Assembly: GCA_964572345.1 (NCBI GenBank)
Contig: CAZNFA010000006.1
Location: 89,437 to 153,436 of the forward strand
Reading direction: 5' to 3'
Source: an uncultured Planctomycetales bacterium
GTDB taxonomy: Bacteria > Planctomycetota > Phycisphaerae > UBA1845 > Fen-1342
Length of the DNA stretch: 64,000 nt
In this document: positions 6,078 through 45,139 of the stretch, in pieces
Position numbering within the stretch: position 1 is the first letter of the stretch
How the letters are laid out: the number at the start of each line of letters is the position of its first letter
Position numbers and translations under genes: made by a program
Notes under the pieces: model-generated
What the model saw: the letters and a program-made list of their open reading frames with translations, nothing else
Told to the model about the DNA's origin: nothing
Database searches by the model: none

Positions 6078-6839
6078 ATGCCGATCCGCCCTGATCAGGC
6101 CATCGTGCTGCGATTGAGCGACTACTCCGAGTCGTCGCAGATCGTCTCGCTGTTCACGGCCGGCAGCGGGCTGGCGCGGCTGATCGCCAAGGGCGTGCGG
6201 CGCGGCACACGCCAGCGCTTCGCCGCCGGGCTGGACCTGCTCGAGTACGGGGAGGTGAGCTACGCCCCGCCGCGCGGCACTGCCGGGTTGGGCACGCTGA
6301 CCGAGTGGGTTCAGCGCGACGCGTTCGCGGGGCTACGCAGAAACCTGCTTTGCCTGTACGGCGGCCTCTACGCGGCCGAACTGGTGAGCGCGTTGACCGA
6401 GGAGTACGACGCACACCCCGGGCTGTTCGCCGCGCTGCTCGCAGCTCTGCGCGAGTTGTCGGCGGCGAAGCAGCCCGTCGCGACGATCGTCCGGTTTCAA
6501 CTCGAGCTGGCCGCCGCGATCGGCTATGCCCCGCAGCTCCACGAGTGTGTGGGCTGCGGGCGGCCGCGGGCCCGCGGCGCACCGGCGTATTTCAGCTCGA
6601 CCGCCGGAGGCTTGCTTTGTCGCGACTGCGAGATGCACCACGTCGAAAAACGGCGGGTCTCGCCGGCCATGATCGATCAGGGACCACAGGCCACCAACTC
6701 CGAGCAATGGTTCGACCTGCTCGACTACCACTTCAGCCACGTCGCCGGCAAGGCTTTCAAGACGGCCGACCGGCTGCGAGCGCTGCCGCTTGACGGACGG
6801 GCGCGGGGGCCCGGAAGCCGGGGCCGACCGCGAACATGA
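6078..6839 (+). CDS. recO: DNA repair protein RecO
   Basis: N-terminal OB-fold motif MPIRPDQAIVLRLSDYSESSQIVSLFTAGSGLARLIAKGVRR and a C-terminal zinc finger CVGCGRP...LLCRDC. Internal ATG at 6078 within track ORF 5904..6839. Confidence 0.8.
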   Translation: MPIRPDQAIVLRLSDYSESSQIVSLFTAGSGLARLIAKGVRRGTRQRFAAGLDLLEYGEVSYAPPRGTAGLGTLTEWVQRDAFAGLRRNLLCLYGGLYAAELVSALTEEYDAHPGLFAALLAALRELSAAKQPVATIVRFQLELAAAIGYAPQLHECVGCGRPRARGAPAYFSSTAGGLLCRDCEMHHVEKRRVSPAMIDQGPQATNSEQWFDLLDYHFSHVAGKAFKTADRLRALPLDGRARGPGSRGRPRT

Positions 6840-6864
6840 TGGTCTTCCCGGTGCGTGTCACGTT

Positions 6865-7569
6865 ATGATACAGGAGAAGGGAACGCGCGGCGTGAACGAC
6901 GAGTCGGAAAGTCTGCCGGAAGTCGTCCCGGTCTTCCCGCTCCCGGAGATCGTGCTGTTTCCGCGCGCCATGTTGCCGCTGCACGTGTTCGAGCCGCGTT
7001 ACCAGGCCATGACGGTTGACGCGTTAGCGGGGGACGGGGCGATTGCGGTGGCCCTGCTGCGCCCGGGGTTTGAACCGCTGTACTACACGCGGCACGCACC
7101 GATCCATCCGATCCTCGGGCTGGGGCGGATCGTCGCCTCGGAAGAGCTCGAGGAGGGCAAGTACAACATTCTGATCCGCGGCGAGGCCCGCGGGCGGGTG
7201 ATCGAGGAGCTGTCGGGACACCCCTACCGCCGAGCCCGCATCGAGCAGGTCCGCCCCTTCTGTCACCAGGCGGAGCCGGCGCTGCAAAAGCTGCGGCGAG
7301 CGCTGCACCACGCGGTCCGGGACAGTCCCTTCGGCGACACGGACATCCGCAAGCACTGGGCGAGCCTGCTGAAGATGCCGCTCGGATTGGGCGACGCGAC
7401 CGACCTGATCGTCAGCGGGCTGCCGATGGACGGCGAGTTGAAACAGTGCTTTCTCGCCGAGGCGGACGTGCCCGCACGGGCCGCAATGCTGCTGAACGAG
7501 ATTCGGACGTTGAGCGCGGTTACCCGTCAGCGCCGCCGCCTCGCCGACGACGAATGGAGGCTGAATTGA
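6865..7569 (+). CDS. LON N-terminal (substrate-binding) domain protein
   Basis: VPVFPLPEIVLFPRAMLPLHVFEPRYQAM...ILGLGRI matches the Lon N-domain (PUA-like). Start at the ATG (MIQEKG) followed by AGGAGAAGG. A GTG at 6891 is an alternative. Immediately downstream of recO. Confidence 0.65.
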   Translation: MIQEKGTRGVNDESESLPEVVPVFPLPEIVLFPRAMLPLHVFEPRYQAMTVDALAGDGAIAVALLRPGFEPLYYTRHAPIHPILGLGRIVASEELEEGKYNILIRGEARGRVIEELSGHPYRRARIEQVRPFCHQAEPALQKLRRALHHAVRDSPFGDTDIRKHWASLLKMPLGLGDATDLIVSGLPMDGELKQCFLAEADVPARAAMLLNEIRTLSAVTRQRRRLADDEWRLN

Positions 7570-28749: not shown

Positions 28750-29691
28750 TCAGTTGAACCGCTCGGGGGCGCGGGTGAGGGCCCCGTACCGGCGCTGCCG
28801 ACTCAGGATCAGCCCCTGCGTTTGCTGCTGACAGTAAGCTCGGAACTGCTGCTCGAGCGCTTCGAGAGGTTTCGCGGACGCGCACTCGAACGAGGGGATG
28901 GCCGACAACGCCTCTGGCTGGATTCCGTTGAAAGCGCGCCTGACCGTGTCCCAGGGGCGCGGATTCTGGGTCCGGTCGTCCCAAAGGAATTGCAGAAACA
29001 CTGCGGCCTGATGACCAAGGCGCCAGTAGGCCTCTGAGTCGATGTCGGTGGCCTCAACGCCGAGCATTGTGCGTAGGGAAAACGGGAGACCACCCGTTGC
29101 CCAGTCGCTCACACCGGCCTCGATATCAGCGACCGCGAACCCCCGCGGTGCTACCTGCTCTGCCACGAAGCCCGCGGCGCCCTCGTCGATCCACGGCAGC
29201 GTAGGTTCCCCGCCTCGCGCGTGATGCCCGAAGGCATGGCATATCTCATGTGCGACTGTGTACCGGAAGTGGGGGTGGCGCGCGTCCCCGGCGACGAGCA
29301 CGACATCGTCGGGCACGAAGTAGCCGGATTGCGGCGGTGGCTCGGTCGATGTCTCGGGCTGCGCCAGCTTGAAGAGGTCAACCATTTCTGTCGGCGTGCC
29401 GCAAAACACAAACACGCGTCGGGGGCCGGGTGCCAGCACCTGGAACTGGTCCCGCAGAATGCCCTGGACCCTGCGATAGGTATCGTCGATGAGTTGGCGA
29501 AAGGAGTCGCGGTCCGGGGCGGGGGAGCCCATCCAGCAGGCCCGCCAGTCCTCGCCGCGAACCACAAAGCCTTGGTCGGTCCACCCGCAGATCCTGAGGG
29601 TAACCCGCCGCCAGACCTTGCGGAACAGGCGTCGCAGGCTCCGCACGACTCGCCCCGAGCCTCGTCTGTGTCTTGCGGGCATCGTCGGCAT
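28750..29691 (-). CDS. Putative zinc metallopeptidase-like protein (HExxH)
   Basis: 313 aa containing HEICHAFGHH. No further family recognised. Confidence 0.45.
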   Translation of the reverse strand: MPTMPARHRRGSGRVVRSLRRLFRKVWRRVTLRICGWTDQGFVVRGEDWRACWMGSPAPDRDSFRQLIDDTYRRVQGILRDQFQVLAPGPRRVFVFCGTPTEMVDLFKLAQPETSTEPPPQSGYFVPDDVVLVAGDARHPHFRYTVAHEICHAFGHHARGGEPTLPWIDEGAAGFVAEQVAPRGFAVADIEAGVSDWATGGLPFSLRTMLGVEATDIDSEAYWRLGHQAAVFLQFLWDDRTQNPRPWDTVRRAFNGIQPEALSAIPSFECASAKPLEALEQQFRAYCQQQTQGLILSRQRRYGALTRAPERFN

Positions 29692-29714: not shown

Positions 29715-30275
29715 AAGCGGCAGAGCAGGCCTGTAAGCCGGATTCTGTACCCGCCGCGATTGCGGCGGGCGGCGGCCATTCGTCTGGGCCCGCCGTTGCC
29801 GACGGGCTCGAGCGCCCTACCCGGGGCTGGCTAGCGAGCCGGGCCGGCTCATCGCCCCCTACTTGGGCTTGCTGGCGGTGGGGTTTGCCCTGCCGTCCCG
29901 ATCACTCGGGACGCGGTGCGCTCTTACCGCACCATTTCACCCTTGCCTGTGCGGGGTGACAAGGTGACAACGTCACAAGGTGACAGATGAGTGCCCGGCA
30001 GCCTTTGCTAGCCGGTGCGAGCGACGCCGAGGGTCACCAAGCCTTTGTCACTTTGGCACGTTGTCACCTTGTCACTCCCGCCATCGGCGGTGTGGTTTCT
30101 GTGGCACTTTCCCTAGGATCGCTCCCGGTGGCCGTTAACCATCACCGTGCCCTGTCCAGTCCGGACTTTCCTCCCTTGACACGCCGCCGCGGGCTCCGCC
30201 CGTCGCTGCAACGCAGCGAGCCGCGCGAAGCGCGGGGCGGCGTGTCAAGGGCGACCGCCCGGCCCACTCTGCCGT
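29715..30275 (-). ncRNA. rnpB: RNase P RNA (bacterial type A) with a large inserted hairpin
   Basis: Minus-strand matches to universally conserved RNase P RNA blocks: GGAAAGUCCGGAC (P4 5' strand, plus ~30160), AGGGUGAAAUGGUGCGGUAAGAGCGCACC (P10-P12, plus ~29920-29948), ACAGAAUCCGGCUUA (P4 3' strand, plus ~29740). A putative P1 forms between GGCAGAGUGGGCC (plus 30261-30273) and GGCCUGCUCUGCC (plus 29719-29731). Boundaries are approximate, to roughly 10 nt. Confidence 0.85.
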
Positions 30276-30560
30276 CAGCTAGTATACCCCATCCGGCGTA
30301 CCGCGCCCCGAATTACCACCACGCCAGGGGGCAAGCCGTGCTCGACCAGCGTGCCCTCGCGTGGCAGTGGAATTGCCGTCCAGTACCCCCCGGGCCGACG
30401 ACGACCGGTTCTATCGGCGATTGGCACCGCGATTATGAAATATTGCCTGAATTGCAATAGGCGCTTCCCGTAGAAGTGGTAGCCTTAGCATGTAGTCGGT
30501 CCTAGTCGCGCTGTGGCTATGGTATTGCGGCCCGGGTTTGCGGCCGGCGGAGGTCGAGAC

Positions 30561-39151: not shown

Positions 39152-40690
39152 TCACCACCCACCGTCGCGCGTGAACGGATTAGGCGACCCGGTGGCGCCG
39201 TTGATCGTTCCGCTGGCGCGGAGCGTGCGCGCCAGCTCAATGCCCATCGCGCAGACGTCCGGGGCGTCGTCGTGGCGGGCCTTGGGGAAGTGCAGAAACT
39301 GCGACTCGATCTCCGGGGCCAGGGCCGCCGGCAAACGAAACGTCCCATTCTCGTAGAAGGGCGACGAGCCCTCGATCCGGGCGCGCTTGTTCGCCGTCGT
39401 CCGGATCGACACGATTGGCATATAGAGCTGTCGGCGGCGACTGTGCTCGTCGAGGATGTCCTTGAGCGCCACCTGGTAAGCGACCGTCTCGATGCCGATC
39501 CTGACCGGTTTCCATTGCTCGAACGCGGTCGTGATGGTCTTGACCTGATCGACGACGCCGATGCGTTCCAGCTTCAGCGCGCGGGTGTAGATGACACCGG
39601 TGTGGCGCTCGACGCTTCCGACCCAGAGGGCGAAGTAGTCTCCGCCGCTGACCCCGGTCGCCGGATCGACCGCCATGAGCGTGATGAGCTCCTTTCCGGC
39701 CAGTTCGTCGGAGTGGTAGCGTTGCAGCCACTCGGGGCGGAAGACGCGGATCGAGTCGTCGATCGGGTTGGCCAGGTACTCCTGCTCGAAGGCCAGCGTG
39801 CCGACACGTTCGCGTTCCTCCTGTAGCCGCTCGACCGGCCAGCGATCGGGCCAGAGAGCCTTGAGGTAGTACTGGTCGTCCTCGGCGAGTTCGGCCTCGA
39901 GCGCCCGATAGACCTTGTAGTCCCAGCGCGGGAAGCGCGTTTTGTCACGCAGATTCGCCAGCAACGAGTCGTAGTGGATCAGCGAGCCGAGCACGATCAA
40001 CTGTCCATCGGGGGTCAGGGCCGGCATCACCACCTGGCGTAGCCAGTGTTCCAGCTTCCGCCGACCCTCGGGCGAGGCCACCTGCTCATCCTTTTCGATG
40101 TCGTCGCAGATGATCAGATCGGGCCGGCGTGGTCCCACCCGGGCTCCGCGGATGCCCGCCCCGGTCCCCTTGGCCTGAACGGTGATGCCGGCCGCGGTCG
40201 TGAAGAACGACTCGGTCCATTTCGACCGGCTGGGCCGTTTAGTCTTCTTCTTCTTCTCCCCGTCCTTCTTTTTCTTCACCCTACGTGCCTTCGTGCCTGC
40301 GTGCCTACATGCCTTCTTCTTGGCCCCTTCTTCCACACATAGATCGCCGTACTTCTCGATGATCCGCTCATTGGTCTCCAGCTCGTTGCGGATGTCGCGC
40401 ACGAACTGGGTGGCGAGTGAGGCCTCGTGCGTGATGATGACGATGTTCCCTCGGCGGCGCTGGCAGATGCACCACAACGGGTAAGCCAGGGCGGCACAGG
40501 TGCTCTTGGCGTGCCCGCGGGGCGCGACGCGGGCGATCAGACGGCTTCGGGGGTTCTGTAGATCCGCCATCAGCTCGGCATGGAACGGGGCCGGCTCGTT
40601 GCTGAAGTATTCCGGCAGATACTTCCGGGCCCAGCGCAACGAAGCGGGGTGATTGGGGTGCTGGTTGCGCGTGGGCTGCCGGGTGCTCAT
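39152..40690 (-). CDS. Phage terminase large-subunit-like protein (orphan)
   Basis: Walker A-like APRGHAKSTCAAL. DLIICDD Walker B/catalytic motif. C-terminal RNaseH-like nuclease region typical of Terminase_6-type large subunits. An unusual Lys-rich insertion (KKKACRHAGTKARRVKKKKDGEKKKKTKRPSRSKW) is encoded by low-complexity CTTCTT/GTGCCT DNA. Confidence 0.7.
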   Translation of the reverse strand: MSTRQPTRNQHPNHPASLRWARKYLPEYFSNEPAPFHAELMADLQNPRSRLIARVAPRGHAKSTCAALAYPLWCICQRRRGNIVIITHEASLATQFVRDIRNELETNERIIEKYGDLCVEEGAKKKACRHAGTKARRVKKKKDGEKKKKTKRPSRSKWTESFFTTAAGITVQAKGTGAGIRGARVGPRRPDLIICDDIEKDEQVASPEGRRKLEHWLRQVVMPALTPDGQLIVLGSLIHYDSLLANLRDKTRFPRWDYKVYRALEAELAEDDQYYLKALWPDRWPVERLQEERERVGTLAFEQEYLANPIDDSIRVFRPEWLQRYHSDELAGKELITLMAVDPATGVSGGDYFALWVGSVERHTGVIYTRALKLERIGVVDQVKTITTAFEQWKPVRIGIETVAYQVALKDILDEHSRRRQLYMPIVSIRTTANKRARIEGSSPFYENGTFRLPAALAPEIESQFLHFPKARHDDAPDVCAMGIELARTLRASGTINGATGSPNPFTRDGGW

Positions 40691-44530: not shown

Positions 44531-45139
44531 TACGCAGGTCGGGTCATCGACCCGACACTTCCGTCCGCAGCCCCAACGGGGCGACCGACCGTAGCCCAGG
44601 ACGCAAGTCCTGGGTAACCAACCCACCCCAAATCCCCACAGCCCCGCACGGGGCGACAGAACACACCCCGGCAGACGACAGGCGGCCAGAGCTACCGGCG
44701 TTGCTCGGGCTGAACGTGGTTGGCGAAGCGGAGGGCGGCGTAGAGGTCGTTGTCCGAGCGGTCGTGCATGCGGGCTCCGGCGGGCGGCACGTTTGGTGTT
44801 CAAATCCGTCCCCCACCGCTGAAGCGATGGGGCACCCTGCGGAGGCGCGCAGCGGACGCAGCGCCTGTCTAGGAATTATAGGCAGGGAACAGGGATCAAG
44901 GGATCGAGGGATCAAGGGAACGAGGGATGGCGGGGAATTGGTGGTTTTTGGCGGGTTATTGGCGGGGTTTGATACAGCAGAGCTCGGCTCGGAAGATTGA
45001 CCACGGAGCACACGGAGATCGCAGAAAGGCGGGTGCCCCAGCCTTTCAAGGCTGGGGGACGGACCTCGCGGGAGAGAAGACGATGATCGAAAGCGGTGGC
45101 ACCCGGCCCGGCGGTTACGCCTCGTGGTCGATGCCGGGG

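Follow-up and report, generated by a model that had tools for sequence, protein, structure and literature searches.

Extended P12 and P3 helices, probably inherited within the clade, in the long RNase P RNA gene of an uncultured planctomycete

Long paired extensions that sit at the tips of peripheral helices and vary between close relatives are familiar from ribosomal RNA, where they occur as 23S intervening sequences and rRNA expansion segments. In heterocyst-forming cyanobacteria, a comparable extension reportedly affects RNase P RNA, in which heptameric tandem repeats are said to lie in the P12 helix, to differ between close strains and to represent recent, independent invasions. The STRR-containing RNase P RNA of these organisms is the subject of Vioque (1997; Nucleic Acids Research 25:3471), and P12 is described as dispensable there (PMC2858038). 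In the bacterium Thermodesulfatator indicus, a type A RNase P RNA with an intact core carries a large extension (~70-87 nt) at the tip of P12 (PMC9945441), and P3 and P12 are routinely handled as unalignable variable helices (PMC4264200). Here we describe the RNase P RNA gene (rnpB) found in 64,000 nucleotides of DNA from an uncultured Planctomycetales bacterium (assembly GCA_964572345.1, contig CAZNFA010000006.1, positions 89,437 to 153,436), hereafter the window, in which P12 is lengthened by mirrored arrays of an octamer. In the searchable literature, heterocystous cyanobacteria are the only organisms for which a P12 built from repeats is described, and an earlier description from a planctomycete is possible.

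We find that the window holds, on the minus strand, a complete type A rnpB whose product is predicted to be catalytically active, and that its surplus length very probably consists of clade-inherited extensions of two variable helices, P12 (146 nt) and P3 (79 nt). The feature is an ordinary variant for its clade and represents neither a new kind of molecule nor a new mechanism. In a cmscan search against Rfam, RF00010 (RNaseP_bact_a) matched at 30270-29718 (254.9 bits; E = 7e-82; gathering score 100), and the match is complete and not truncated, covering model positions 1-367. All of the core blocks that we checked are intact, namely both P4 strands, J11/12 (CACAGAAA) and J12/13 (AAGGGUGAAA). 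The peripheral elements expected of a type A RNA (P13/P14, P15-P17 and P18) are also all aligned, with the loops L13 (GUAAGAG), L14 (GUGA) and L18 (GCAA) present and a GGU within GGGUAGG that we take to belong to L15. The RNA departs from the class A model in its length, 553 nt against 367 model positions, with the surplus lying in P3 and P12, and in the presence of P19, an element that has been reported for representatives of the PVC (Planctomycetes, Verrucomicrobia and Chlamydiae) group (PMC9945441). Extending P1 to 30274 would bring the length to ~557 nt, and a P1 pairing of 29718-29731 with 30261-30274 (repeat I12) suggests that the 5' end of the RNA may lie near this position.

In the covariance model (CM) alignment, the larger insertion sits inside P12 (model positions 126-152), between the J11/12 block ACAGAAA and the J12/13 block GGUGAAA. 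The stretch between these two blocks is 151 nt long, compared to ~32 nt in the Rfam consensus, and the surplus in P12 comes to ~110-120 nt. Each arm of the helix is a tandem array of period 8 with ~3.9 units, and together the arms are mirrored arrays of the octamer GUGNNAAN that pair over ~33 bp with a perfect core of 18 bp. The inverted arms (29953-29985 and 30046-30078; 33 nt) are 88% complementary, the 18-bp stem is uninterrupted, and a 17-mer within them (GTGACAAGGTGACAACG) is found exactly twice, in inverted orientation, against an expectation of 0.1. A 145-nt segment of P12 folds to -85.8 kcal/mol (z = -9.2), a value reached by none of 200 shuffled sequences. P12 has a G+C content of 62%, and its sequence includes no U-tract or A/U-rich stretch. 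At its base (CCGCCGAUGG ... CACAGGC), the helix presumably resembles E. coli M1 RNA. The extension begins where the distal stem of the E. coli helix would, at the tip of a normal P12 base.

These results bear on an earlier reading of the same stretch, made from its letters and predicted open reading frames (the sequence-only reading), which had called an over-long minus-strand gene for a type A RNase P RNA. The Rfam match agrees with that call, and the palindrome that it described, built from a reiterated octamer (GTGACAAG), is recovered as the period-8 arrays and the 33-nt complementary arms. Its 'P9 position' for the insertion and its assignment of AGGGUGAAA to P10 were mislabels, because the CM alignment places the insertion in P12; P9 is the short, normal hairpin GGGAGCGAUCCU at 30126-30115, and the supposed P10 block is J12/13, the junction between P12 and P13. 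The single insertion of ~130 nt that it proposed is better described as the surplus in P12 together with a second insertion, in P3, which it had missed.

This second insertion adds ~55 nt to the gene, and the resulting 79-nt P3 hairpin folds to -66 kcal/mol. P3 is short in three of the related loci, L007, L291 and L105, where 38-41 nt separate the 5' end from P4. A recent insertion specific to the window was considered for the long P3, given that the helix is short in L007 and L291, and was rejected on finding that locus L043 carries a homologous long P3, CUCUUGGCACGCCGCC...GGCGGCGUGCCAAGG, in which a compensatory change has turned A-U into G-C. The P3 of another locus, L051, is of intermediate form. 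By this comparison, we regard the long P3 as old. We also considered a likeness between the base of P3 (CUUGACAC) and the P12 unit (CUUGUCAC), which agree at 8 of 9 nt, and dropped it, as ~2 such matches would be expected by chance (a hand estimate).

To follow the gene among relatives, we used homologues of the neighbouring flotillin-like protein, which are labelled as metagenome-assembled genomes of Planctomycetota or Phycisphaerae. Only L007/L008 and L291 are usable by synteny; homologues at 83% identity or less (L010-L017, L289, L290, L292) are non-syntenic or lack rnpB. One contig (L001) holds the full 553-nt gene with a cmscan score equal to that of the window, and partial copies in four others (L002, L003, L005, L006) hold a 151-nt P12 region with the window's length, composition and fold. 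In the syntenic sister species L007 (JGI 3300057034), rnpB is 499 nt long with a short P3, and the P12 region is 151 nt, as in the window, with 10 differences; L008 shows the same rnpB architecture as the window. In L291 (GCA_030616465.1), rnpB is 466 nt long with a nearly identical core and a P3 as short as that of L007, and P12 differs in the sequence of its distal part, which lacks repeats (region of 119 nt; long hairpin of -74.6 kcal/mol). Every relative examined has an expanded P12, and the site is never empty. By their flotillins the window, L007 and L291 are about equidistant (89-92% amino-acid identity; 0.70-0.77 third-codon identity).

The P12 stem is conserved far above the silent-site rate. 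Third-codon identity of flotillin between the window and L007 is 0.71, a silent-site divergence of 29%, and under this rate the absence of any difference in the 18-bp core (0 of 36 nt; P = 4e-6) and the two differences in the octamer arrays (2 of 64 nt; P = 1e-7) are both improbable. The apex of P12 evolves faster, with 7 of 56 nt changed (P = 0.003), and holds seven of the ten differences in the P12 region. More distant relatives carry arrays of the same kind: in L051 and L043, whose rnpB cores are 85% identical to the window's, mirrored octamer arrays with the units GGUGAUAA/UUAUCACC and CGUGGGAA/CGUUCCCA, respectively, lie at the same place in P12, and GUGNNAAN is the unit common to all three. 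The octamer P12 spans lineages of 85-91% core identity.

We find that the two arms of these arrays change together. In a P12 alignment of four sequences, 93% of cells form standard pairs and 14 of the 50 pairs change on both sides, a number reached in none of 500 shuffles. As a control, sliding the partner strand by 1-3 columns left 1-3 both-side changes and 35-49% of cells paired. The long P12 helix alone has 9 compensated pairs among 33. Within each unit, the variable NN changes together with its partner on the opposite arm (AC/GU, AU/AU, GG/CC), and we take the arrays to be homologous and old and to evolve in concert with their pairing preserved. Given the compensatory changes in the relatives' arrays and the unchanged core in L007, we regard the P12 helix as old and maintained, not recent.

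Long P12 regions occur in several bacterial phyla. We took a census of one genome per GTDB species with a pattern consisting of CACAGARA, a spacer of 130-160 nt and AAGGGTGAAANGGNNNNGTAAGAG, and found at least 119 species with a P12 region of this length. The taxa among the matches listed include many Acidobacteriota, as well as Verrucomicrobiae, Alphaproteobacteria, Bacteroidota, Abditibacteriota and others. Planctomycetota account for 15 of these species, 8 of them Phycisphaerae or its subgroups by NCBI labels, and RF00010 was confirmed at all 15 loci, three of which are truncated or partial on the model. Those of the 15 rnpB genes that match the whole model are 483-638 nt long (638 nt at L111:811-1448), and the 553 nt of the window are unremarkable in the phylum. 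The 18-bp stem is equally unremarkable among these long P12s, many of which have uninterrupted stems of 18 bp or more; the longest, in L092 (rnpB at 6594-7079), reaches 50 bp.

Repeat-built P12 helices recur in the census. Tandem Repeats Finder reports arrays of period 7 or 8 in 18 of the 119 P12s listed, on both arms in 10 of them, and the 15 Planctomycetota among the matches listed include 8 with such arrays. A second clade-specific family, built from the heptamer GARACUA, occurs in L096, L111 and L131 with 8 compensated pairs among 33. In a member of the Gemmataceae (rnpB at L133:2137-2650), four perfect heptamer arrays make up P12. Of the Planctomycetota, L092, L111 and L133 have rnpB genes more extreme than the window's. 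The window's own P12 sequence is absent from the contigs among the matches listed, both of the census and of a scan of metagenomes for the repeat.

Such a scan, for three units of the octamer in tandem, returned (GGTGACAA)n arrays in at least 120 unrelated metagenome contigs (L137-L256; for example, L159, L160, L177 and L211) with G+C contents of 0.31-0.72. About a dozen of the contigs listed have inverted arrays, which form long hairpins. Some of the arrays adjoin repeats of another octamer, for instance CCCCTGAC, and among the arrays checked none falls within a known RNA. In viral contigs the unit gave 18 matches, compared to 0, 8 and 6 for three control octamers of matched composition. The arrays are mostly generic octamer microsatellites with an enrichment that is at most modest, and because control octamers also yield arrays, we do not claim a special repeat family.

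How might such a helix arise? We propose that the octamer arrays arose by replication slippage and would grow and shrink in the same way, and that intrastrand template switching, together with selection for pairing, would restore the complementarity of the arms; the outcome would be that units on both arms evolve in concert. In structure models of bacterial RNase P, the conserved base of P12 contacts L13. Because it starts beyond this L13-contacting base, the extension would point away from the face that binds tRNA, where it could be tolerated, and it would either stay as a protruding helix or be clipped after transcription. Template switching is documented as a source of hairpins in RNA and of multi-base compensated changes (PMC8794818), and the window's helix resembles these cases in being a near-perfect inverted repeat in a structural RNA with multi-base compensated changes. 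It differs in that its mechanism is deduced rather than documented, and in that its tandem-repeat arms add slippage as a second process.

The sequence-only reading had raised a recent insertion, possibly MITE-like, as one source of the palindrome, and a lineage-specific helix expansion as another. We consider it very improbable that a mobile element of the MITE (miniature inverted-repeat transposable element) or REP (repetitive extragenic palindromic) kind inserted recently into rnpB. The palindromic arms do resemble terminal inverted repeats, and L291 has an unrelated sequence at the same site. However, no further copy of the 17-mer with up to 3 mismatches lies outside rnpB within the 64-kb window, and an alignment with L291 reveals no direct repeat at the borders (GAUGG/CGGGAG ... 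CACCCCG/CACAGG), so that no target-site duplication is seen. The arms are also internally repetitive, unlike typical terminal inverted repeats. Moreover, the hairpin is present in L007 with its core unchanged, homologous covarying arrays occur in L051 and L043, no relative has an empty site, and the octamer form is common to the whole 85-91% range of core identity; these points already largely refute a recent insertion or a mobile element, and the homologous arrays favour the lineage-specific expansion. An older invasion, in which short tandem repeats from a family spread over the genome entered P12 long ago and became fixed there, has somewhat more to commend it and is still unlikely. An invasion is what has reportedly been proposed for the STRR sequences of heterocystous cyanobacteria (Vioque 1997), and (GGTGACAA)n arrays are widespread in metagenomes; in addition, 8-nt arrays of unrelated units occur elsewhere in the window (44884-44971 and 40280-40314), and L291 has an unrelated P12 sequence at the site. 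Set against this, the 64 kb of the window contain no second array of GTGACAA, the viral enrichment is modest, none of the 120 listed metagenome arrays lies in an rnpB P12, and the divergence of the units tracks that of rnpB among the relatives, which fits evolution in place. The sequence-only reading had also allowed for ordinary P12/P13 length variation common to the clade, and with 15 Planctomycetota among at least 119 species and gene lengths of 483-638 nt, this is largely what we find.

Two further possibilities concern the reality of the palindrome and its fate in the RNA. Several contigs end inside rnpB: three independent assemblies (L002, L003, L005) stop exactly at 29787, the end of P18, while L006 ends at 29918 and L004 at ~29998 inside P12, where it is fused to a Nextera adapter (CTGTCTCTTATACACATCT). 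The breaks may come from strain-level differences in the variable modules or in the downstream open reading frame (ORF). That an assembly artefact or chimera made the palindrome has a negligible probability, as the full gene in L001 and the partial copies in L002, L003, L005 and L006, from different samples and pipelines, agree with the window, and the same architecture is found in L007, L008, L051 and L043. A less remote alternative, though one we hold to be rather unlikely, is that the distal part of P12 would be cut out by RNase III or RNase E, so that the active RNA would consist of two fragments held together by the core. RNase III needs a duplex close in length to the P12 stem of the window, with its 18-bp perfect core inside ~33 bp of pairing, and the strict conservation of this stem would fit a processing signal. 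In T. indicus the P12 expansion is excised both in vivo and in E. coli, and a short P12 put in its place impaired complementation (PMC9945441). However, the cleavage sites in T. indicus are A/U-rich (PMC9945441), whereas the window's segment is G+C-rich, has no such stretch and is built from repeats. The likeness to 23S intervening sequences is limited in a similar way, as the RNA is a different one and excision by RNase III is only hypothetical here. So strictly conserved a duplex is consistent with a role in processing or in folding and proves neither. Excision concerns what becomes of the extension, and it is compatible with our preferred explanation, the inherited extension of P12 and P3.

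Several points weigh against that explanation. The covariation alignment has four sequences from three lineages, and covariation within a DNA palindrome could be produced by hairpin repair at the DNA level, with no selection on the RNA. The octamer stem itself is replaceable, because L291, a close relative, has a non-repeat P12 of 119 nt. Lastly, P3, P12, P14 and P19 form a mosaic among the window, L007 and L291, whose rnpB cores are nearly identical; simple vertical descent, as we read the alignments, does not cleanly explain this mosaic. The window combines a long P3 and an octamer P12 with a P14 resembling that of L051; L007 (3580-4078) has a short P3 and an octamer P12, and L291 (402-867) a short P3 and a different P12, the P14 of both being similar to that in L105. 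The P14 stems of the window and L007 differ by four compensated pairs, read from the alignment. Flotillin and NfeD put the window slightly nearer L291. The mosaic may reflect losses or replacements on separate branches, or rnpB modules may have been swapped by recombination across the conserved core. A blastn-short search against all census loci found no donor sequence for the P12 of L291, the P12 apex of the window or P19.

Compared to the STRR-bearing RNAs of cyanobacteria, the window's helix is alike in that short tandem repeats of 7-8 nt lengthen the P12 of a type A RNA, with ~4 units per arm in the window, and in that a close relative, here L291, can hold an unrelated sequence at the site. 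It is unlike them in its phylum and in its unit, the octamer GUGNNAAN in place of heptamers. The arrays of the window are also common to several species, covarying and old, whereas those of cyanobacteria are described as recent. Close relatives do not carry unrelated repeats: L007 shares the arrays, and only L291 differs, without repeats. As for dispersal of the unit, no other copy lies within the 64 kb of the window.

The coordinates of the gene and its parts are collected below. A scan for a sigma-70 consensus found no full promoter, and a terminator scan gave nothing usable.

Table 1. Parts of the rnpB locus, in window coordinates.
Feature	Position	Strand	Basis or remark
Whole rnpB gene (553 nt) for a bacterial type A RNase P RNA	29718..30270	(-)	RF00010 match
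P3, extended to a 79-nt hairpin whose base is a perfect stem of 16 bp, CCCUUGACACGCCGCC/GGCGGCGUGUCAAGGG	30251..30173	(-)	CM alignment: 59 nt against 4 in the model loop
P4 5' strand GAGGAAAGUCCGG (catalytic core)	30161..30173	(-)	CM alignment
P9, short normal hairpin GGGAGCGAUCCU	30126-30115	(-)	CM alignment
J11/12 conserved block CACAGAAACCACA, 5' boundary of P12	30091..30103	(-)	CM alignment
Whole P12, 146 nt	29945..30090	(-)	CM placement, fold, covariation
P12 5' arm, four tandem octamers GUGACAAG GUGACAAC GUGCCAAA GUGACAAA	30042..30075	(-)	Period 8, ~4 copies
P12 apex, 56 nt, two small hairpins predicted	29986..30041	(-)	Fold; fastest-evolving part
P12 3' arm, complementary octamers UGUCACCU UGUGACGU UGUCACCU UGUCAC	29956..29985	(-)	Period-8 array
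J12/13 block AAGGGUGAAA, 3' boundary of P12	29935..29944	(-)	CM structure line ',,,,,,,' between P12 and P13
P13 (loop GUAAGAG) and P14 (loop GUGA) hairpins	29893..29934	(-)	CM alignment
P18 hairpin, GCAA loop	29787..29809	(-)	CM alignment
P19 hairpin CCCGCCGC-AAUC-GCGGCGGG, optional, between the 3' strands of P2 and P4	29750..29769	(-)	Insert in the model 319-345 region
P4 3' strand ACAGAAUCCGGCUUA	29734..29748	(-)	CM alignment
-10-like hexamer TATACT	30281..30286	(-)	Weak, sequence-only; lies 7 nt upstream of 30274, the inferred 5' end

Around the gene, an ORF of 157 aa (29987-30460, plus strand) runs antisense over the 5' half of rnpB and recurs as a JGI gene call (L003:201-674); it has no Pfam match and is almost certainly a spurious call. 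On the other side, between a gene for a TPR protein and rnpB, lies a minus-strand ORF of 313 aa (28750-29691), also with no Pfam match. It is absent from the syntenic locus of L007, tblastn found no match to it in L007 or L291, and by these comparisons it is a lineage-specific insert or an ORFan. In the more distant relative L105 (1414-4115), a penicillin-binding protein (PBP, transpeptidase) gene of 52% amino-acid identity directly adjoins rnpB; because of this adjacency, the TPR gene (957 aa) and the ORF of 313 aa would in the window lie between two anciently linked genes. Elsewhere in the window, an intergenic match to the small RNA Acido-Lenti-1 (RF01687; 46.4 bits; gathering score 37) lies at 44569-44614 on the minus strand, and ~270 nt from it an apparently intergenic array of the octamer AGGGAWCR (~6 copies) is followed by a TGGCGGG-rich array of 11-mers (44884-44971). 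An array of 4.4 copies of CCTACGTG (40280-40314) lies inside the ORF 39152-40690.

For annotation, the practical consequence is that this rnpB is ~50% longer than the Rfam model and that assemblers tend to break inside it. For RNA evolution, the locus offers a clean case in which a peripheral helix of an essential ribozyme was lengthened by mirrored tandem repeats and has long been preserved, and whole repeat units that change in step on both arms suit tests of slippage and template-switch models. A repeat-built P12 is apparently common in Planctomycetota and present in other phyla, which suggests that the finding would extend a phenomenon of cyanobacteria. In a broader proposal, to which we give only a modest chance, P12 would be a recurrent site at which mirrored arrays of 7 or 8 nt grow into duplexes that are inherited over long times, evolve in concert and are kept by selection; the clades involved may include that of the window (GUGNNAAN), Phycisphaerales (GARACUA), Gemmataceae, Verrucomicrobiae, Abditibacteriota and others. 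If this is true, the P12 duplex may be a processing signal by which RNase III would leave RNase P RNA in two pieces, may assist folding, or may form an arm on which proteins dock.

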